From assembly GCA_030669135.1 (NCBI GenBank), contig DAOVEE010000001.1, positions 1 through 29,338 of the forward strand: a stretch of DNA of 29,338 bases. Reading direction: 5' to 3'. The position numbers and the translations under genes were made by a program. Of the stretch, positions 3,097 through 26,886 are shown piece after piece (within the stretch, counting starts at the first letter, position 1; every line of letters begins with the position of its first letter). This stretch comes from Candidatus Bathyarchaeota archaeon. Lineage in GTDB: Archaea > Thermoproteota > Bathyarchaeia > TCS64. The notes below the pieces were generated by a model. That model worked only from the letters and a program-made list of their open reading frames with translations, was not told the origin of the DNA and searched no databases.

Positions 3097-3380
3097 AGAT
3101 CAAGGCTAAGCTCGGCGACGTGCTGCACCGCTCAGGTAGCAGCGGCCACCTCATAGTCAGGCTAGAGGCCGAGACACACATCGGCGAGCCGGTTTACGAC
3201 ATGAAAGGGACCCGGGTGGGTACCGTCTTCGATATCTTCGGACCCGTGGAGGCACCATTCGCGTCTGTAAGGACCCGCGAAGACGATGAGGAGACCGAAC
3301 ACAAAGCGCTCTTCCTCGGAGAACAGAAGAGGCAGAGCAAGCCAAGAGACAGGTCTAGGCGTCGTAGAAACCGGTCTTAG
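3093..3380 (+). CDS. gar1: H/ACA RNP Gar1/Naf1 family protein
   Basis: ATG 3093 overlaps the srp19 stop (ATGA). LG.VLH......LIV...IG..VYD..G..VG.V.DIFGPV..PF.SV, followed by a basic tail. Confidence 0.9.
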   Translation: MKIKAKLGDVLHRSGSSGHLIVRLEAETHIGEPVYDMKGTRVGTVFDIFGPVEAPFASVRTREDDEETEHKALFLGEQKRQSKPRDRSRRRRNRS

Positions 3381-3781
3381 GCAGGGTTCAGGCAGTCTCT
3401 TACCCCCATGACTTCACCGCCCTTTAGGTACACCCTAGGCACTCTTCTACCCACCCCGCACGTCACCTCGTGGGCGATGGTGCCGAGCCACCCTGCTACC
3501 TCCTCCATTGTTGGAGCGCCGTCAGAGCCGTCCCCGAACAGCGTCACGGTGTCGCTAACCTCGACCTGCCCTATATCCGTCACGTCTACCATGCACTGAT
3601 CCATGCACACACTCCCGACGATTGGGGCCCGGCGTCCATCGATAGTCACCTCCCCGACGTTGCTCAGACCCCTGCTGTAGCCGTCGGCGTAGCCGACGGG
3701 AAGCGTGTCTATCCTGCTCTTCCTCTCAGTGCTGTGGGGGAGGCCGTAGCTAAGCCCCGTGCCGGGCGGATCATGTGAGTT
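3377..3781 (-). pseudogene. alr: Alanine racemase, C-terminal half only (bacterial type)
   Basis: The frame is open from 3781: ...PPGTGLSYG...TERKSRIDTLPVGYADGYSRGLSNVGEVTIDGRRAPIVGSVCMDQCMVDVT...GTIAHEVTCGVGRRVPRVY. An in-frame TGA lies at 3782-3784. The N-terminal PLP-Lys barrel is absent. Confidence 0.85.
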
Positions 3782-3864: not shown

Positions 3865-3940
3865 TGGCGCGGTCGGCAGGATTCGAACCCGCGACCCCGG
3901 GTTCCGAAGACCCGTGCTCTATCCACTGAGCTACGACCGC
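3865..3940 (-). tRNA. tRNA-Arg (anticodon UCG), 76 nt, intronless, CCA encoded
   Basis: GCGGTCG/CGACCGC acceptor stem, D arm GCTC-AGTGGATA-GAGC with the Arg determinant A20, anticodon stem CGGGT/ACCCG with loop CT-TCG-GA, T loop TTCGAAT, discriminator G followed by CCA. Confidence 0.97.
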
Positions 3941-4023
3941 CCATGGTTCAGAGATTCGCACACTAGAAAAGGGTTACCCCTCCACGGGTTGAACCTAAAT
4001 ACCTGTAGCTCGACACGATACAC

Positions 4024-4203
4024 GTGAACACCGAGGTCAACCTGCCATACGGAGAGACGAGTTTAAGACAGAGCATTCCCGACAGATTCGGATGCACCTT
4101 GCTGGAGCCGAGGGACGTGAAGAAGGCTCTCGACGCCGTTGACCAGGATCCTAAGATAAGCATAATACCCGGGGGTCCGTCTACGATTTCACTGTTGGAG
4201 TGA
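4024..4203 (+). pseudogene. Internally deleted LarA-family remnant (59 aa: N-terminus fused to C-terminus)
   Basis: GTG 4024: VNTEVNLPYGETSLRQSIPDRFGCTLLEPRDV|KKALDAVDQDPKISIIPGGPSTISLLE*. The first half matches the LarA N-terminal LPY motif (shared LPYGET with the 20582-21817 gene). The second half matches the LarA C-terminal ekA.....q.akv.vIP.G motif. Below the 60-aa track cut-off. Confidence 0.6.
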
Positions 4204-18842: not shown

Positions 18843-19334
18843 CTAAATATCGTCGAGGGTGGCTGCCATGACCCAAGCGTCCTCGCCGTCCATGTAGTAG
18901 CCGTAGTTCCTCTTCACCTTCTTGAACCCGAGCGCAGCATAGAGGCCGATGGCTGCGTCGTTGCTGATTCTCACCTCGAGGTACCCCTCGGACGTGCTGT
19001 ACACGTCTCTGCCCTTGCGCATCGCCTGTACGATGAGCTCCCTGCCGATTCCTCTCCTCCGGTAATTCTCTATCACCGCGATGGAGACGGTGTGGCAGAG
19101 ACGCGAGGGGGTGAGCTTGCCTATCTTCGACCAGCCTCTCTCGATGCGGCACATGATGTATCCCTGCACCGTGTCGTCGACGTCGGCGACGAGAAAAGTC
19201 TCAGGGTACCTCTGGTGTAGGTCCCTGTAGAAGTAGCTGCTATAGTTCTCGGGGAGACACGCAGCGTTAATCTGCATCACGCGCTCAATGTCCTCAGGTC
19301 TGAACCCCCTTACCCTGAAGCCCGCATCACTCAA
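18843..19334 (-). CDS. ard1: N-terminal protein acetyltransferase (Ard1/RimI, GNAT)
   Basis: IN..CLPENY..YF, GYIMCRIE.G, SIAV...YRRRGIG, YLEVRISN..AI.LY..LGF, YY.DGEDAWVM. Confidence 0.92.
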   Translation of the reverse strand: MSDAGFRVRGFRPEDIERVMQINAACLPENYSSYFYRDLHQRYPETFLVADVDDTVQGYIMCRIERGWSKIGKLTPSRLCHTVSIAVIENYRRRGIGRELIVQAMRKGRDVYSTSEGYLEVRISNDAAIGLYAALGFKKVKRNYGYYMDGEDAWVMAATLDDI

Positions 19335-19429: not shown

Positions 19430-20563
19430 ATGGGCGCTCAGGGACCCTGTGTTCAGGGGGAGATGGACCCCCGGTACGTCGAGGCAGTCAGAAGAAACTT
19501 CGAAGTAGTGGAAACCTATTGGGAGCGCTCGACGCCCACGTTCATAGTGAAGACTAGGGGCACCGGGTTCAGGCAGAGCCTGTTGAAGCCCGCCTTCGAG
19601 GTGCTCTCGGACGAGCTGAGGCCCCGCGGCTATCTCCCGAGGGTTAGATGGATCGTTGACAGCTACCACGTATCCATCCTGAAGAGGGAGGAGTTCGGGG
19701 TGGAAGACTACAGGCGTAACCTGATACTCTTCGTGGCGACCGTGGCCACCGTGTTTCTCGACGGTTACATCAGGAGCAGCAACCCCGTGCTCACCGATGC
19801 GCTCATGAAGGGTACCCCCGTCTTCGTCAACGCGCTGCTGTTCACGTTCGCGATCATTACCATATTCGGCTTGCACGAGCTCGGCCACAAGTACGTGTCG
19901 ATGCGGCGAGGGGTTGAGGCCAGTCTGCCCTACTTCATACCCGCCCCGCCCGGGATGGGTGGGACCCTCGGCGCCGTTATCACTCAACGTGAGCCTCCGG
20001 TGAACAGGGACGCCTTGTTCGATCTGGGGATGGGGGGGCCGCTGACGGGGTTTCTAGTGACGGTGGTCATGGGGGTAATAGGGATGCGGCTCAGCTTCGT
20101 GGTGCCTCAGCGCACAGTGGCTGAGCTGATGATGCGGTTCGCCGAGGTCAGGTTCCAGCAGATCCCCTTACCGATTATTCTGGAGTACATCGCCGACTTG
20201 GTCAAGCCGACGCCGGAGGGGTACGTCCTCATCATGCATCCCGTCGCGTTCGCCGCCTGGGTGGGATGCATATTGACCTTCATCAACCTCATCCCCGCTT
20301 GGCAGCTCGACGGCGGCCACATGATCCGGGCACTCGTCGGCCGCGAGTCGCACAAGATAATAAGCATAGCCGGTGTGCTCCTCCTCGTCATCTCGGGGTA
20401 CATGATCATGGGGGTGGTGGTGGCGTTTTTCCTTATGAGGGAGGGCGCTGAGTCCATCGAGCCCCTTGACGACCTGTCCCCCCTCAGCATGTCGAGGAAG
20501 CTGGGTTTCTTCCTCTACTTACTCATAATGATGCTTACGCTCGTGGCGCTACTGCCATTCTAG
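19430..20563 (+). CDS. Site-2 protease (M50 family)
   Basis: HELGH zinc motif, PYFIP, LFDLG..GPL.G, HP.AFAAWVG, NLIPAWQLDGGH; multiple TM segments. Confidence 0.95.
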   Translation: MGAQGPCVQGEMDPRYVEAVRRNFEVVETYWERSTPTFIVKTRGTGFRQSLLKPAFEVLSDELRPRGYLPRVRWIVDSYHVSILKREEFGVEDYRRNLILFVATVATVFLDGYIRSSNPVLTDALMKGTPVFVNALLFTFAIITIFGLHELGHKYVSMRRGVEASLPYFIPAPPGMGGTLGAVITQREPPVNRDALFDLGMGGPLTGFLVTVVMGVIGMRLSFVVPQRTVAELMMRFAEVRFQQIPLPIILEYIADLVKPTPEGYVLIMHPVAFAAWVGCILTFINLIPAWQLDGGHMIRALVGRESHKIISIAGVLLLVISGYMIMGVVVAFFLMREGAESIEPLDDLSPLSMSRKLGFFLYLLIMMLTLVALLPF

Positions 20564-20581: not shown

Positions 20582-21817
20582 CTATTGAAGTATCTTCATT
20601 GTGCACCCATGTGGAATCACGTAGGTACCTCTGCCCCGACGCCCGCTCAACGCCCGCTGATACGCCTCGTTGGTGGTTCTAGCCGCCTCCATGCCTAACG
20701 GCTCCACCAAGTACTGTGGCAGAGCCGAGACCAGTATGACCCTGTTGTTGCGTGTAACCTTCCTGATGATGTACAGCCCGTCCGCCCCATAGGTGTATCT
20801 TCGCTCGAACTCCGGGAGATCCATGACTCTCGCCAGATTAGTGAAGGACTCGGCCCCCAGCCCCTCACCGCATTCTCCGAGAAGCACGATGGTTCCGTTC
20901 TTCTTCGTAACTCCGGTCGCCGTCTCCAGAGCCCACGCTGTCTTGTATAGGCTGTAGTCGAACCGGTCCCCGCCGGCGCTTATCACCGTGACGTCTGAGT
21001 TCCCCTCCGCCTTGACCTCGTAGGAGCCCCCCAGCTGGGTGACGGCCTTCCCCCATGACTCCTCGAGCCCGCCCGCGAAGGCACCGATATAACCGCCTCC
21101 CGGGTCTACAGCTAGATTGAGTGCAAAGTCCACACCCGCCAGCCTCGCGGCTGCGACGGTCTCCTCCTTCACGGGGTTAAGCTCTATGACCCCGGGCATG
21201 ACGCCTCCCTTGAAGTAATGCTTCCGGGCGTTCTGGATAGTCTGAAGCGAGGCTATGCCGGGAAGTATCGCGTTTTGTGCCCCCGTGAATCCGGAGTGGC
21301 TGTCAAGCCTAGTCTCCCCCACCGCTATCTTCAGCGTGGCGTCGAGGTATTCTCTGTTGACTTTGACGCTTGTCCCGCCGCCTGTACTGCCCGCGTCACC
21401 CAGATTGGAGGAGGCTTTGGTGTGGTTCACCAGCCTCACCTGCGACAGACCATCCGTCTCCCGTATCGCTCCGATTAGCCGCGTGGTCTCGCTCTCCCTC
21501 TCACCGTTACCGACTACGATGGTTATCCTGTCCCGCGGGACGATGAGCTCCACGAGGTGTTTGACTATCGATGACAACGCCTGAGAGGCTAGGCTCGGGG
21601 TCATGGAGCCGTCCACCGCGATGGCTATCCTGCAGTCTGGCTTCACCTGCTCGTTAAGGGTCGCCGCGCCGCTCGGCTCGTCCAGTGCCCGGGCTATCTC
21701 CTCCGCTACTTGCCTGGGCTCCTGTTCGATGTGGGGATCAAGTATCTCGATGAGGTTGTCCATGTCGACAGAGACGTATACCTCTGTCTCTCCGTAGGGA
21801 AGCCAACAGTCCACCAA
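20582..21817 (-). CDS. LarA (lactate racemase/NPN-dependent epimerase) family protein, catalytic residues apparently lost
   Basis: Colinear with LarA over its full length (LPYG, AL..P.G, G.t.vNr, G..G....ILPGIAS, A.AG..E, D..iS.GG, K..GtIv, G.G.E.F, VIP.G), but the key residues are substituted (see findings). Confidence 0.88.
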   Translation of the reverse strand: MVDCWLPYGETEVYVSVDMDNLIEILDPHIEQEPRQVAEEIARALDEPSGAATLNEQVKPDCRIAIAVDGSMTPSLASQALSSIVKHLVELIVPRDRITIVVGNGERESETTRLIGAIRETDGLSQVRLVNHTKASSNLGDAGSTGGGTSVKVNREYLDATLKIAVGETRLDSHSGFTGAQNAILPGIASLQTIQNARKHYFKGGVMPGVIELNPVKEETVAAARLAGVDFALNLAVDPGGGYIGAFAGGLEESWGKAVTQLGGSYEVKAEGNSDVTVISAGGDRFDYSLYKTAWALETATGVTKKNGTIVLLGECGEGLGAESFTNLARVMDLPEFERRYTYGADGLYIIRKVTRNNRVILVSALPQYLVEPLGMEAARTTNEAYQRALSGRRGRGTYVIPHGCTMKILQ

Positions 21818-21861: not shown

Positions 21862-23256
21862 TTACGGAGTCAACACGTTCTTGTCTGTGGAGCTAGCCTT
21901 GGTGCCCGTAGCGTCTTCGCCAGAAGGCGTGGTCGGGTCCGTTGAACTCGGTTCCAGCTGCGTCTGGGTGCTGTTGAGCAGCCTCTGCCTCAACCGATCT
22001 AGGAGACTGCTGTGGCTCCGAAGCTGGTACTTGACCGACGGGCTGAGTGTAGAAGTGGTACTCGTTCTGTTCCTCCACGCCTCTAACCATGCATGAGCCC
22101 TATCCATGTCGCTGAGGGTGTTCCGAGTCTCCTCGTCCTGTATCGTGGAGACCGCCGTCTCTATGTCGTCGCTGAGCTCCTGAATCTCGTCCATGTCAAC
22201 CTGCCCGGCCTGCAGCGTCTCTTTGAGCCGCTGGAGCTTCTGCTCGGTATCCGTCAACGATCCAAGGGCCTGGGTTTTATCTTGGTCTGTGATGGTGTTC
22301 TGGTACTGGTTCAGGGTCTGGCGCATCTCCTCCACCCGGCTCTCCATGTTTTCCCTGTACCTTGAAGCCAGCCTCGTCTTGACCTGCTGGGAGAGCTGCT
22401 CGATCCTCGCCCTAACTCTGTTCATTGCTTCGACTGCGGCCTTCAGCGCCCGCTGACTCCCTTCACGGTCGCCTTTGCTGTGCTTCGCCTCAGCCTCATC
22501 TATCAGGCTCCCTATGTTATCTAGGGCTCCGTCTAGAGCTGTCGTGTCGTAACCGTTATCTGCCAGCCGCTTGGACAAGTTCCTATGGTTTTCGAGGGCT
22601 TCTCTGGCTCTCCGGATCTCAGGCGATGGCCGTGTGTCTGCCTCAGGCGGCTGGGGCTCAGTCACCGCCTTGAAGGCTCTCTGGAACATGGTCTGAGCTC
22701 TCCGCGCCTCAGCCAGCGCCGCCGCGTACTGGCCGTCCTCGAAGTATCTGCGAGCCTCTTGAAGCGCCTCCTGCGCCTCACGGTAACCGTTGAGCACAGC
22801 CATGGGCACGGCTTCGCCTTCTTCCTCAAGCTCCGCCATGTAAGCCTCGAGGGCCTGCTTTGTACGGATTATACTCTGGATCATGTTCTGAAGCCTCTCC
22901 CTCTGACTCATTGACGAGACGAGAACCCTCGAGGATGACACCACGCTGTCTCCTATCCTGATCTGGACTGTGTAAACGTCAGGGGCCAAGTCCCCGGGTA
23001 ATGTTACGTTCAAGCTGTACGACCCCGTCGCTGGGGCAGTGAAGTTGTAGGAGAAGGCGTCCCCGTTTGACGCTGTGAACTCCACGACCACCAAGGCCCC
23101 GGGGCTGGCTGTGCCTCTGACCGTGTACATGCCGCCGGGCCGCGCGTATACGCTCGGCTGACTGGCTGTCAGCGTGGGCTGGCTGTATGCGGGTAGGAGC
23201 GTGGACGCCGCGACTATTATCAGCATCATCGCGGTGGCTGCCTTGACTCTTTTCAT
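21862..23256 (-). CDS. Secreted protein: signal peptide, beta-sandwich-like domain, helical repeats, Ser/Thr-rich tail
   Basis: MKRVKAATAMMLIIVAASTLLPAYSQ is signal-like, so ATG 23256 is preferred; a TATA-like CTATAATAT lies about 25 nt upstream. The track start at 23334 overlaps the upstream stop and is also possible. Confidence 0.75.
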   Translation of the reverse strand: MKRVKAATAMMLIIVAASTLLPAYSQPTLTASQPSVYARPGGMYTVRGTASPGALVVVEFTASNGDAFSYNFTAPATGSYSLNVTLPGDLAPDVYTVQIRIGDSVVSSSRVLVSSMSQRERLQNMIQSIIRTKQALEAYMAELEEEGEAVPMAVLNGYREAQEALQEARRYFEDGQYAAALAEARRAQTMFQRAFKAVTEPQPPEADTRPSPEIRRAREALENHRNLSKRLADNGYDTTALDGALDNIGSLIDEAEAKHSKGDREGSQRALKAAVEAMNRVRARIEQLSQQVKTRLASRYRENMESRVEEMRQTLNQYQNTITDQDKTQALGSLTDTEQKLQRLKETLQAGQVDMDEIQELSDDIETAVSTIQDEETRNTLSDMDRAHAWLEAWRNRTSTTSTLSPSVKYQLRSHSSLLDRLRQRLLNSTQTQLEPSSTDPTTPSGEDATGTKASSTDKNVLTP

Positions 23257-23330
23257 CCTGTCTACCTGTATCCGTGCGGCGATATTATAGGAACCCGAAG
23301 GAATGAGGCGGAACAGGTGTTTCAAGCCAC

Positions 23331-24593
23331 TCATCTACGGTACCTCCTGTGGATGCTCACGAGGCTCTGGCCTCCTACCTTTCTCTCCTCTATTATGTCC
23401 AGCCCCTCGAGGCGGCGCTGCATTCTCCAGGCGCTGGTCCGCGGGATGTCGAACCTCTCCCGTATCTCGTTGGAGAACAGCTCGCCCCCGGACTCCGCGA
23501 TGAACCTTATTACCTCCCTGTCGTCCATCCTCAGAGTCGGGTGATCCCGGAAGATGGCGTCGAGGTCTACTTCCATTAACTTGGGCTCGGGTGGTTTGCC
23601 CGGTTTCTTGGATAGTCGAACATAGAGAACCGCCCCGAAGACGAGCACGGCCGCAGCCAGCATGTAGCTGGTGAGGCTCTGGGGCTTCACGGCGTTCAAC
23701 GCCGTAATCTGGCTCTGGTAGGCATAATCGTAAGCTGACTCGTAGTCCCCGGTCTCGTAGGCGGTGTCAGCCTGGGCCAGCAGCTGCTCAGCGACGTCTA
23801 CGCCCTTCGTCCTTCCCTCCGACTCTGCCTCCGAGATGGCGAGGCTCGCCGCCTCCATCAGGTCATGGGCCTGCGAGGCGTCGGCTGTGGCCTCGTCGGC
23901 GGCGTCTTTCGCCTGCGTCGCCAGCTGGATCGCTGTCGGGTAGTCAGCCAGATCGAAGGCTTCGGTGGCCTGCTGGAGGAGGTCAAGCGCCTCCGAGACT
24001 ATTATCCCCCCGTCCATTATCTCCTGTATGTGCCGCTCGGCGTCGGCGATGGCCTCCTCCGCCTTGCCTCTGGCGTCGAAGACGCTGGTTATGTAGGAGA
24101 CGAATATGTCTCCTGGGAGCATACTGACGTAGGGCCTGTCTTCATTTGTGCCTATCTCGACGGGTACTTCGCTCAGGTTAATTATGGTGGAGCCCTGCGG
24201 GAGCGTTATGCTGGTGGTTATGGTGGACGTCACGTTGACTGTCCAGATCGCCCCCGTCTTGCTGGTGAGGGAGGAGGTTAGGTAGGTGACCACGACGCCC
24301 GTAGACCCAAGCGTGTCGACTGATACCCCCTCGTCCGTGACCGAGGCGTCGAGGGGTAGGCCGTCCTGGTCGACGACGAGCAGGCTCTCGTACGGGAACC
24401 CCGGTAACTCAACTTCTATACGCACTAGGGACGGGTCTGTCTCTGCCTCGTAGTCGACCTGCACCACGCCGTCGTTGTAGACAAGCAGGGACAGCGACTT
24501 GGAGGCGTAGTCCTGGGCTTGGACCGCCGGTACGAGCAGCAGTGCCAGCGTCGACAGGAGCAAGGCTGCCTTTAGCTTCATGTACGCTTCCAC
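23331..24593 (-). CDS. Membrane-anchored receptor-like protein with C-terminal winged HTH (COG2512-like)
   Basis: Signal peptide MKLKAALLLSTLALLLVPAVQA (ATG 24581 likely), extracellular beta-rich region and two helical repeats, TM YMLAAAVLVFGAVLYV followed by RLSKKPGK, then wHTH DREVIRFIAESGGELFSNEIRERFDIPRTSAWRMQRRLEGLDIIEERKVGGQSLV. Confidence 0.85.
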   Translation of the reverse strand: MEAYMKLKAALLLSTLALLLVPAVQAQDYASKSLSLLVYNDGVVQVDYEAETDPSLVRIEVELPGFPYESLLVVDQDGLPLDASVTDEGVSVDTLGSTGVVVTYLTSSLTSKTGAIWTVNVTSTITTSITLPQGSTIINLSEVPVEIGTNEDRPYVSMLPGDIFVSYITSVFDARGKAEEAIADAERHIQEIMDGGIIVSEALDLLQQATEAFDLADYPTAIQLATQAKDAADEATADASQAHDLMEAASLAISEAESEGRTKGVDVAEQLLAQADTAYETGDYESAYDYAYQSQITALNAVKPQSLTSYMLAAAVLVFGAVLYVRLSKKPGKPPEPKLMEVDLDAIFRDHPTLRMDDREVIRFIAESGGELFSNEIRERFDIPRTSAWRMQRRLEGLDIIEERKVGGQSLVSIHRRYRR

Positions 24594-25108: not shown

Positions 25109-25471
25109 CTAGCTGAGCCTGCGCCGTGCAAGCCAGTAGACGGAGAACGCCACACCCAAGTCTAGGACCCACCACTTGTACAAGTCTAAGAAACTAACCA
25201 CTCCACGGTCTCCCAGTATTATAGGGCCATCTGGTTCACCTGTAAGCTCCTCAGTCGCCTCCTCCCCTAAGCCAAACATGGGAGCTTCGTTGGTGGCGTT
25301 CAGGCTTTCTACGATGTCCCCCGGGCTCCTTTCGATGCCCGCCTCTTCGGAGCCGGCGAGCATCAACGGAGGTGGAGCCACGTATCTCTCGACCTGCCCA
25401 GGCACGGCTGAGATCAGCAGGTAACCAACCGTCACCGCAAGCACCGTATAGACCGTGACCCGGCTATTCAT
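25109..25471 (-). CDS. Hypothetical membrane protein (TM-acidic loop-TM)
   Basis: 120 aa: VTVYTVLAVTVGYLLISAV, an acidic Pro/Glu linker, then WWVLDLGVAFSVYWLARRRLS. Confidence 0.7.
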   Translation of the reverse strand: MNSRVTVYTVLAVTVGYLLISAVPGQVERYVAPPPLMLAGSEEAGIERSPGDIVESLNATNEAPMFGLGEEATEELTGEPDGPIILGDRGVVSFLDLYKWWVLDLGVAFSVYWLARRRLS

Positions 25472-25541
25472 CGTTGTACCCTCCGTGCTCGTGTGACTTA
25501 ATGCTAGAGATTAGAACAGCCGAGGAGCCTGTATCGTGGGG

Positions 25542-25561
25542 GTGTTCTGTATTTAGAACAC
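25542..25561. promoter_or_regulatory. Inverted repeat GTGTTCT-N6-AGAACAC (operator or hairpin)
   Basis: Perfect 7-bp arms directly after the stop of the wHTH-TM gene. An extra TTAGAACA copy lies at 25511-25518, identical to 25553-25560. Confidence 0.45.
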
Positions 25562-26002
25562 TCATCTTGGGCGGTCCCTCCAGATCCGGTAGGTCTCGTA
25601 CCACAGGATCGCGGTGGGCACCACGCCCATCACCAGGGTCGTTATTGCGTCCCTCGACGGGTAGAACGGTTGCTGGACGAGGTACGTGACAAGCATCGTG
25701 GTCATGAGCACCGCGTAGAAGAGGTATCTGGGCAGCATCACCCCTCCGAGGGTCACGAACTGTCGTAGAACCCCCACCTTCACCTCCTTGACGAGCTTGT
25801 AGTCGCCGTAGACGTTCTCAACCAGACCGAGGTCCATGAGCTTGTTCAGGTGGTAGCTGCTGACGCTGGGGCTGCTGAACCCTAGCTCCCTCTGCACCTC
25901 CCGGACGCCCACCGGCTCGTTGGGGTTCTTGATTATGTGCATGTAGACCAAGAGGGTCTTCCCTTTGAGCTCCGACTCTATCACCGCGTCTTCGCTTGCC
26001 AA
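25562..26002 (-). CDS. Membrane-tethered winged-helix transcriptional regulator
   Basis: LKGKTLLVY....K...PVGVREVQRELGFSSPSVSSYHLNKL.DLGLV (ArsR/MarR-like wHTH) followed by two C-terminal TM helices. Confidence 0.85.
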   Translation of the reverse strand: MASEDAVIESELKGKTLLVYMHIIKNPNEPVGVREVQRELGFSSPSVSSYHLNKLMDLGLVENVYGDYKLVKEVKVGVLRQFVTLGGVMLPRYLFYAVLMTTMLVTYLVQQPFYPSRDAITTLVMGVVPTAILWYETYRIWRDRPR

Positions 26003-26040
26003 GGCAGTTACATCCCCTGAGTTGGTATCTAATCCGTTGT

Positions 26041-26886
26041 TCAGTCTTTAAACGTATTCAGAAGCGCCAGCGTAGCGTGGATAGCCTCCTCCGTCCTGAC
26101 GGTCTCGGTTCCTTGGCCGGGTACCGTGTTGAATATGAACCTGAAGCATTCCTCCGCCCTCTTACGCTCCCTACCTATAATCTCGTATACGCCGTCCCTG
26201 TTAGACCCGAAGGCGACGAGTGTGCGCCTGCTCTCAGCCCAATGAGAGCTTATCTTCGGTGCAACTATGTTGAACTCGTCGCCCTTCCTCGAGGTCGCGA
26301 TGGTCAGGTCCCACTCGGGGCTCAGCGCTAGCTCGCACAGTTTAAACTTGCTGCCCCGGAGGTTGTATCCCCAGTACTCGCTCAGCCTGCTCTTCTTGGC
26401 TGATCTTCCCTTGAGGTTTGGCTCCTTCTCAACGACCCGTACGGTCACCCGGCTTCCTCTGCTCGGGGCCCGCCCCTTTACCTCCATGAACTTGTCCAGC
26501 CCGACGTCCACCATGTAGCCGCCGTCGATTATGTTGATGACCACCCCTTCACGGACCTCCCCTACCTCTACGTTCTCCACACGGTCCTCGAGGGGGTGGT
26601 GGGGGGTCCGCAGCGGCGGCAGCGTCCCGACGTACCTGAGCTCGGGCCGCTTCTTGAAGAGGTACTTCCTGAGGTACTGGGGCGTCTCCATGTACCCCAG
26701 TATGTACTTCATGAGGGTGCTCTCGTCAGGCTGGTCGGGGTACACGACGATCTCCTCTACCCTGTAGATTGCTGCGGCGCGTCCAACATGGCCCAGCGCC
26801 TCGGTCTTCTCCCTGAGGCGCCTGTGCTCGGAGACCATCGAGGCCGGTATGGCTATCGAAAGCCTGTTTCTTCTCCTATCCACCAA
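26041..26886 (-). CDS. SPOUT-family putative RNA methyltransferase (COG2106/C9orf114-like)
   Basis: LSIAIPASMV, GRAAAIYRVEEI, YMETPQYLRK, G.LPPLRTPHH, central OB insert, YWGY, NTVP.QGTETVRTEEA. Confidence 0.93.
   Translation of the reverse strand: MVDRRRNRLSIAIPASMVSEHRRLREKTEALGHVGRAAAIYRVEEIVVYPDQPDESTLMKYILGYMETPQYLRKYLFKKRPELRYVGTLPPLRTPHHPLEDRVENVEVGEVREGVVINIIDGGYMVDVGLDKFMEVKGRAPSRGSRVTVRVVEKEPNLKGRSAKKSRLSEYWGYNLRGSKFKLCELALSPEWDLTIATSRKGDEFNIVAPKISSHWAESRRTLVAFGSNRDGVYEIIGRERKRAEECFRFIFNTVPGQGTETVRTEEAIHATLALLNTFKD

Follow-up and report, generated by a model that had tools for sequence, protein, structure and literature searches.

A LarA-fold protein without nickel-pincer nucleotide residues at the malate racemase locus of Bathyarchaeia: a candidate pseudoenzyme

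In the lactate racemase LarA, the cofactor, nickel-pincer nucleotide (NPN), is tethered by Lys184, His200 is a nickel ligand, and His108 and His174 form the acid/base pair of the active site. Departures from this arrangement have been described. Single-histidine LarA-like enzymes (PDB 9Q2U, 9Q3J, 9Q3K; PMC12611868), which are about 500 amino acids long, have lost one histidine to Asn and bind NPN. A survey of LarA homologues (LarAHs) also set aside groups 12, 13 and 16, as they are without the catalytic and NPN-binding residues; Group 12, from Nitrosopumilus (Nmar_0290, NKOR_01295), was excluded in one sentence and given no function (Desguin et al., 2020; PMC7583248). Here we describe a LarA homologue encoded in a 29,338-nucleotide stretch of DNA from a Candidatus Bathyarchaeota archaeon (assembly GCA_030669135.1, contig DAOVEE010000001.1, positions 1–29,338; hereafter the window). 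An earlier inspection of the letters of this stretch, which we call the sequence-only reading, had proposed that the open reading frame at 20582–21817 encodes a full-length LarA homologue stripped of its cofactor and catalytic residues, and thus a candidate pseudoenzyme. We refer to the protein and its closest orthologues as D-type, and examine where they come from, whether they are maintained, and what they may do.

The reading frame is intact as proposed, with zero internal stops across 411 codons, and the protein matches both Pfam Lar_N (2e-29) and LarA_C (2e-10). In 22 orthologues the start site is kept as ATG or TTG, with a stop 1–4 codons 5′ of it in most, and the N-terminus M/L-V-D/E-C-W-L-P-Y-G is common to all 22; on this comparison the TTG at 21815–21817 is the true start. 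The closest solved structures by sequence are the malate racemase Mar2 (PDB 6D6Z; E = 9e-37, 25% identity) and Lactobacillus plantarum LarA (PDB 5HUQ; E = 2.5e-27), and the match to the single-histidine enzymes is weak (E = 4e-4). Scored against the NCBIfam LarA equivalogs, the protein falls under every cut-off, the best being the LarAH6 malate racemase model NF052593 at 243.1 bits (cut-off 500), while the lactate racemase model gives 166 bits (cut-off 460). An AlphaFold2 model made with 20 family members as input (predicted local distance difference test, pLDDT, 93.1; predicted TM score, pTM, 0.91) superposes on LarA structures, including holo LarA, at TM scores of 0.86–0.89 and resembles closed LarA. 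The two-domain LarA fold is predicted to be intact.

Compared with these systems, the D-type protein combines a familiar scaffold with an altered active site. It resembles the LarAH6 malate racemase (Mar2, PDB 6D6Z/7S91) in being its best match in both the PDB and NCBIfam, in length and in two-domain fold, but lacks D72, R75, H108, H174, K184, H200 and K298, and the GAHK substrate motif has become GADG. With L. plantarum LarA it shares the fold and, by HMMER alignment, the Gly-rich loop, the PGIAS motif, N218 and Y294, but not the Lys tether, the nickel ligand or the catalytic histidines, and the NPN pathway was not found in its genome. The single-histidine enzymes likewise depart from the two-histidine mechanism; unlike the D-type protein, they have lost one His only and have kept NPN.

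Three independent alignments agree on the seven losses that the sequence-only reading had listed: a HMMER alignment to 5HUQ, a MAFFT alignment with 13 canonical archaeal LarAHs, and an hmmalign alignment with 150 cluster representatives. The HMMER alignment is gap-free from G167 to F202, with the G-F-x-G, PGIAS and T-I motifs as anchors, and places D172 at H174, N182 at K184, R198 at H200 and W295 at K298, with H108 opposite a gap or R107. MAFFT and hmmalign concur and place G70 at D72, T73 at R75 and R107 at H108. Where LarA has the NPN-tethering Lys184, the family has S, N or T (Asn182 in the window protein) and K in none. The D-type protein does carry a His174 and a His200 of its own, each two residues after a lost His, which raises the possibility that the Lys and His residues are still there, only displaced. 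Position 174 is Y, L or H across the family, with Leu in a 91%-identical orthologue, and position 200 is H, L, N or T. Because these histidines are unconserved even in close orthologues, and because the alignment is gap-free and anchored on both sides, the LarA residues are lost and not shifted. In the segment homologous to the one that lines the LarA substrate, R339, R340 and G344 are invariant in the D-type family, and Y341, A345 and L348 are conserved in at least 95%, a pattern that canonical LarAHs do not share. Judged by its residues, the D-type protein should be no NPN racemase.

This pattern is not confined to the window. A search of 5.8 billion proteins gave 168 matches at E ≤1e-10, of which 120 were listed; the residue counts in Table 1 are taken from these 120. 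Nearly all of them are full-length (about 410 amino acids), they are 48–99% identical to the window protein, and they come from Bathyarchaeota or Thermoproteota where named. The residue loss is accordingly a trait of the whole family, not decay. Pairwise dN/dS (ratio of nonsynonymous to synonymous substitution rates; Nei-Gojobori) is 0.07–0.22 for the D-type gene, compared with 0.03–0.16 for its M50 neighbour and 0.21–0.36 for the coiled-coil gene upstream. The D-type gene is retained under strong purifying selection, and neutral evolution across orthologues, which would have told against the sequence-only reading, was not seen. Retention, in contrast to the genuine pseudogenes of the window, is likewise consistent with the family-wide residue pattern and the intact predicted fold. 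Among 41 related genomes, all metagenome-assembled, 38 have a match to the D-type gene; 33 have an open full-length frame, and 2 more have fragments at contig ends. The D-type form itself is carried by 20 members of the genus (window genome included) and by 5 of 6 members of the sister family. An alignment of 20 family sequences has 26 invariant columns. The D-type clade is monophyletic (support 100/99), and its sister is a clade which we call ‘D...L’, with Leu at the R198 position and Met or Arg at the W295 position, followed by another degenerate orthologue. The larger tree is a polytomy that requires 3–4 changes, and its root and Nitrosopumilus branch are unreliable.

The position of the gene points to where the protein came from. 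The D-type gene lies beside a gene for an M50 membrane metalloprotease and one for a GNAT acetyltransferase (Table 1), and the same LarA-like/M50/GNAT order is seen again in the genus and the sister family, as well as in class-level Bathyarchaeia with a canonical gene at the locus. In those canonical genes D72, R75, H108, H174, K184, H200 and K298 are all present, one of them scores 504.7 with the LarAH6 malate racemase model, above its cut-off of 500, and 4 of the 5 genomes with a canonical gene at the locus have LarB, LarC and LarE. Since a canonical LarAH6 gene occupies the same arrangement elsewhere, the D-type gene is by its position orthologous to the gene for an NPN-dependent malate racemase, and the D-type protein is descended from an archaeal NPN-dependent malate racemase of the LarAH6 type. 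The trio is also found on a Nitrososphaeria contig and in Nitrosopumilus-like genomes. Other arrangements were seen as well. On a Bathyarchaeota contig (L052, 1420–6826), a degenerate LarA-like gene (K184 to D, H200 to R, K298 to E) lies beside larE, larC and larB, followed by the GNAT gene; this order may show the lar cluster in its ancestral state. On L051 (2351–5219), a degenerate orthologue follows a D-isomer-specific 2-hydroxyacid dehydrogenase gene on the same strand, and the GNAT gene comes next with no M50 gene between.

The D-type family is part of a wider set of degenerate LarA-like proteins. An exhaustive profile search of 1.84 billion cluster representatives, from which the best 150 matches were listed, returned about 14 D-type clusters and about 35 further clusters without Lys184, most of which outscore most canonical LarA homologues. 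Where named, these Lys184-less clusters belong to Bathyarchaeota, Nitrososphaeria and Aigarchaeota, all of them with the automatic label ‘nickel-dependent lactate racemase’, and they share with the D-type the N-terminal motif MVxCWLPYGxTEV and the motif LVSxLP. In the 35 degenerate clusters outside the D-type, variability at the seven sites that once served the cofactor or catalysis exceeds that of the protein at large (entropy 3.09, mean 2.31; an equally high value in 0.45% of permutations).

The same group extends to the Nitrosopumilus proteins of Group 12. In a phylum-wide sample, one family, whose genomes are complete, low in GC and about 1.6 Mb in size, had a match in all 37 members (37/37); we call these genomes Nitrosopumilus-like. 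Proteins from two of their loci, L053 (5070–6188; genome G128) and L054 (5102–6184; genome G213), match the published Group 12 sequences (Nmar_0290) over the first 31 residues, and the D-type profile matches them at 1e-20 to 9e-22. As in the D-type, the catalytic and NPN residues are unconserved in Group 12 and Asp stands at the His174 position (signature D-I-L-D-G-L-T-A); the motifs WLxYGxTxV, GExxxD, AECxGLG and LVSxLP are shared by eye; and in L053 and L054 the LarA-like gene is followed by M50 on the opposite strand and then GNAT. The Group-12-like protein also gives better scores with degenerate proteins than with canonical LarAHs. The differences are considerable: Group 12 is highly divergent (pairwise E = 6.5e-11; a branch of 3.3 changes per site) and shorter (about 360–375 against 411 amino acids), it has T or S where the D-type has N or S at 182 and Ala/Ser at the Arg198/Trp295 sites, and the Nitrosopumilus-like genomes carry LarC. 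The tree places the Group-12-like proteins unreliably because of their long branch; orthology rests on sequence together with gene position. Given the matching N-terminus and the same LarA-like/M50/GNAT arrangement, the window gene is the Bathyarchaeial counterpart of Group 12. No Pfam Lar_N gene was found in Nitrosopumilus-like genomes, whose sole LarA-like gene is the degenerate Group 12 orthologue that Pfam leaves undetected. LarC in these genomes scores about 350 bits (5/5), and LarC without canonical LarA is the reverse of the pattern in the window genus. Our literature search found nothing on Nmar_0290, nor on Bathyarchaeota with lactate racemase.

The genes for NPN biosynthesis offer a second view of the cofactor. 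None of larB, larC and larE lies within the window, as the sequence-only reading had noted. In the window genome (94.8% complete, 298 contigs), profile cut-offs gave no LarC and neither LarB nor LarE, the best matches to the latter two being PurE-like and PP-loop proteins that score far below. The search which that reading had suggested, for an active larA together with larBCE elsewhere in the genome, was answered in part: LarB, LarC and LarE were not found, but two further Lar_N genes were, on contigs C97 (1450–2709 of locus L003) and C78 (856–1776 of L002). With a score of 547, the C97 paralogue lies above the cut-off of 400 for ‘NPN isomerase group 22’; the C78 paralogue is truncated, yet keeps the H...GGGK...NH pattern. 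More broadly, the genus genomes searched have 2–6 Lar_N genes each, some with full NPN residue sets, and among genomes that carry the D-type, LarC is present in 3 of 20 from the genus and 0 of 5 from the sister family, with LarB and LarE following the same pattern. One genus Lar_N gene, of NPN isomerase group 22, adjoins a PdxA-like gene, and another adjoins a gene for a UxaA-like dehydratase. LarC, LarB and LarE occur in only 2–3 of 24 genus genomes despite LarA homologues that look competent, which is puzzling as regards their source of cofactor. Two relatives of the window genome have broken matches, a LarC match with an in-frame TAA (G038, contig C85, 5957–6706) and a LarB match split over two frames (G024, contig C89, 9456–10084), and these may be signs of NPN pathway loss.

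Our best explanation, which we hold with moderate confidence, is that the D-type protein is an NPN-independent pseudoenzyme derived from a malate racemase, which neither binds NPN nor racemises hydroxy acids and works through binding, either to a partner protein or to a small anionic ligand. It has the makings of one: to judge from its residues, it is a homologue without catalytic residues that purifying selection has kept. Relative to a LarAH6-type ancestor it has lost the Lys tether, the His nickel ligand, the acid/base histidines and the carboxylate-binding Arg and Lys, while the fold and the Gly-rich loop are kept. In the D-type subfamily, Asp172, Arg198 and Trp295 probably fill or re-line the vacated cofactor cavity. 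Within the D-type family, the 20 LarA signature positions are not, as a set, conserved above average (entropy 1.44 against 1.49; permutation fraction 0.39). Across the wider degenerate clade, the former cofactor sites vary more than average, but the N-terminal hairpin motif, the LVSxLP motif and the fold are all retained; the role that has been kept is therefore most likely free of active-site chemistry.

Several observations weigh against this explanation or blunt the evidence for it. Ten residues are fixed again in the D-type (D172, R198, Y291, W295, G344, A345, E/D346, L348, R339 and R340), and such a set would also fit a new ligand-binding or catalytic site; a contact between Asp172 and Arg198 is conjecture. 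The seven positions that drift in the degenerate clusters have an entropy of 0.12 in canonical LarAHs, a comparison that is partly circular, as that group is partly defined by three of them. The M50/GNAT synteny is older than the residue loss and is therefore uninformative on any new function. That LarB, LarC and LarE are missing discriminates only weakly: it is supportive and not specific to the D-type, because the same genomes hold canonical LarA homologues with full NPN residues, and we dropped it as proof of NPN independence for this reason. As to expression, four metatranscriptome runs yielded sparse, low-depth contigs at 90–99% identity, which derive from related strains, are spread equally over the neighbouring genes, and may reflect DNA carry-over.

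The refixed residues are the starting point of the main rival, a neofunctionalised, cofactor-independent enzyme in which Asp172, with His/Gln181 and Arg198, would act on a substrate that is new and probably anionic, with R339, R340 and Y291 to hold it. We regard this as unlikely, though it deserves serious weight. Asp172 is 96–100% conserved and Arg/Lys198 98%; R339, R340, G344, A345 and L348 are near-invariant in a segment homologous to the LarA substrate loop; and the kept Gly-rich loop, with a model like closed LarA, would suit a working site. The proposed helper at 181, however, is His in some family members only; the window protein and those closest to it have Gln, and still others Phe or Tyr. 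The sister clade has Leu for R198 and Met/Arg for W295, pocket positions are hypervariable across the wider orthologous group, and the average conservation of the 20 signature positions as a set is unlike a typical active site.

Among the roles offered by the sequence-only reading was that of a heteromer or regulatory subunit, in which the protein would be the non-catalytic partner of an active LarA homologue whose gene lies elsewhere in the genome; we now consider this improbable. Such homologues are at hand, with 2–6 Lar_N genes in every genus genome searched and C78 and C97 in the window genome. Nevertheless, the LarA-like gene adjoins no other LarA homologue in about 45 loci inspected, and LarA is not known to require a partner. 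The proposal fails in genomes that have the degenerate gene as their sole LarA-like gene, namely G037 (100% complete), where it is the only Lar_N gene, and the Nitrosopumilus-like genomes, which are without any Pfam Lar_N gene besides the undetected degenerate orthologue.

Highly improbable, too, is that NPN or a related nicotinic-acid-derived cofactor is still used, bound non-covalently and in an altered manner. The kept Gly-rich loop would allow it, and there is circumstantial support in the degenerate orthologue of L052 beside its larE-larC/larB cluster, in the LarC of Nitrosopumilus-like genomes that have no canonical LarA, and in other LarA homologues of the genus that apparently manage without LarB, LarC and LarE. 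Set against this, nothing remains of the nickel ligand, the tether, D72, R75 or the two catalytic histidines, and LarC is missing from 22 of the 25 D-type genomes. LarB, LarC or LarE without LarA can moreover be explained by other NPN enzyme families (Nat Chem 2026, PMC13524815). Finally, a pseudogene in the making, without function, for which the lost catalytic residues and the truly destroyed second larA of the window might speak, is effectively refuted: dN/dS of 0.07–0.22, full-length open frames in 33 of 41 relatives plus the 2 contig-end fragments, more than 120 full-length orthologues down to 48% identity, and 26 invariant columns with a confidently predicted fold together rule out a decaying gene.

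Table 1. Coordinates of the D-type gene, its altered and retained motifs, and other features of the window.
Feature	Position	Strand	Remarks
LarA-fold coding sequence of the ‘D-type’ NPN-less family, intact, 411 amino acids	20582..21817	-	TTG start 21815-21817; TAG stop 20582-20584
Hallmark MVDCWLPYGETEV, N-terminal, residues 1-13	21779..21817	-	Conserved in all degenerate archaeal LarA-like clades; weakly in canonical LarAHs
VDGSMTP, residues 68-74, replaces SSDHTRP	21596..21616	-	D72 and R75 lost; positions variable in family
GNGER, residues 103-107, replaces ATGFH	21497..21511	-	Catalytic His108 lost; position 107 is R, N, H, F or S
Asp172 at catalytic His174 site	21302..21304	-	Asp 115/120, Asn 5/120 listed orthologues
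Gly-rich loop GFTGAQNAILPG, residues 176-187, retained	21257..21292	-	G176, G179, P186, G187 kept
Arg198 at nickel-ligand His200 site	21224..21226	-	R 106/120, K 11/120 listed orthologues
YKTAW, residues 291-295, replaces YQAVK	20933..20947	-	Tyr kept; Trp295 for Lys298; W 91/120, L 25/120 listed orthologues
ERRYTYGADGL, residues 338-348	20774..20806	-	Homologous to LarA substrate-lining segment (about 349-360)
M50 (site-2-protease-like) membrane metalloprotease gene	19430..20563	+	Convergent with LarA-like gene, 18-bp spacer; pairing kept across Bathyarchaeia and Nitrososphaeria
RimI-like GNAT acetyltransferase gene, third of conserved trio	18843..19334	-	Directly after LarA-like gene where M50 absent
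Membrane protein with winged helix-turn-helix (wHTH)	23331-24593	-	Overlaps coiled-coil gene; part of genus only
Secreted coiled-coil protein	21862-23334	-	Gene pair 21862..24593 ends 44 bp upstream of LarA-like start
Remnant of second, canonical larA	4009..4203	+	About 37 N-terminal and 27 C-terminal codons joined

Upstream of the D-type gene, the wHTH/coiled-coil pair is inserted between it and the genes at 25109–26886, relative to the genus members L017 and L018. We considered an operon with this pair as a clue to function and rejected it, as only some members of the genus have the pair, which evolves fast and stands outside the conserved core. Near the start of the window, the sequence-only reading had also noticed a second LarA-family gene reduced to a stub at 4024. 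This stub is real, and is what is left of a genuine lactate racemase gene: set beside the intact gene of the genus relative L042, which scores 466 against the NCBIfam Ni_dep_LarA cut-off of 460, it has lost 1,089 bp (363 codons, in frame), and the flanks are 92–95% identical at the DNA level. Close by, at 3380–3781 on the reverse strand and beside a tRNA-Arg (3865–3940), only the C-terminal domain of an alanine racemase remains (Pfam Ala_racemase_C, 2e-42), and about 750 bp of the L042 sequence is missing. As each lacks sequence present in L042, both of these adjacent racemase genes have been truncated by deletions in the window genome.

LarA homologues without NPN residues are less new than the sequence-only reading assumed: groups 12, 13 and 16 had already been set aside, and such homologues have been known since 2020 as an uncharacterised branch of the LarA superfamily (PMC7583248). 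What is new is the positional orthology to malate racemase, the phylum-wide gene trio, and the Asp/Arg/Trp replacement set specific to the D-type subfamily. There is a practical consequence for annotation. Orthologues without any NPN residues (records P0005, P0277, P0299, P0152 and others) are automatically annotated as ‘nickel-dependent lactate racemase’; in Bathyarchaeota, Nitrososphaeria and Aigarchaeota genomes this label is systematically wrong, and it distorts metabolic reconstructions of Bathyarchaeia and Nitrososphaeria.

A more far-reaching proposal, which we offer as speculation and think doubtful, is that LarA-like/M50/GNAT is an ancient functional module across Thermoproteota, from Bathyarchaeia to Nitrosopumilaceae, in which a former malate racemase has been converted, more than once among the lineages, to a regulatory or adaptor subunit that does without a cofactor; it might, for instance, sense a metabolite and partner the protease or the acetyltransferase. 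If true, the locus would be a natural series from active enzyme to pseudoenzyme at one genomic position. For the family as a whole, work on LarA has centred on NPN-dependent racemases, and the homologues without cofactor residues form a large group under selection, near-universal in one Bathyarchaeia lineage and with a member in each of the 37 Nitrosopumilus-like genomes sampled; its locus is the one that genuine malate racemases occupy in sister lineages. The locus thus offers a tractable natural experiment on the repurposing of a metallo-cofactor enzyme that has lost its cofactor, and since Nitrosopumilus maritimus is cultivable, the function can be tested there.

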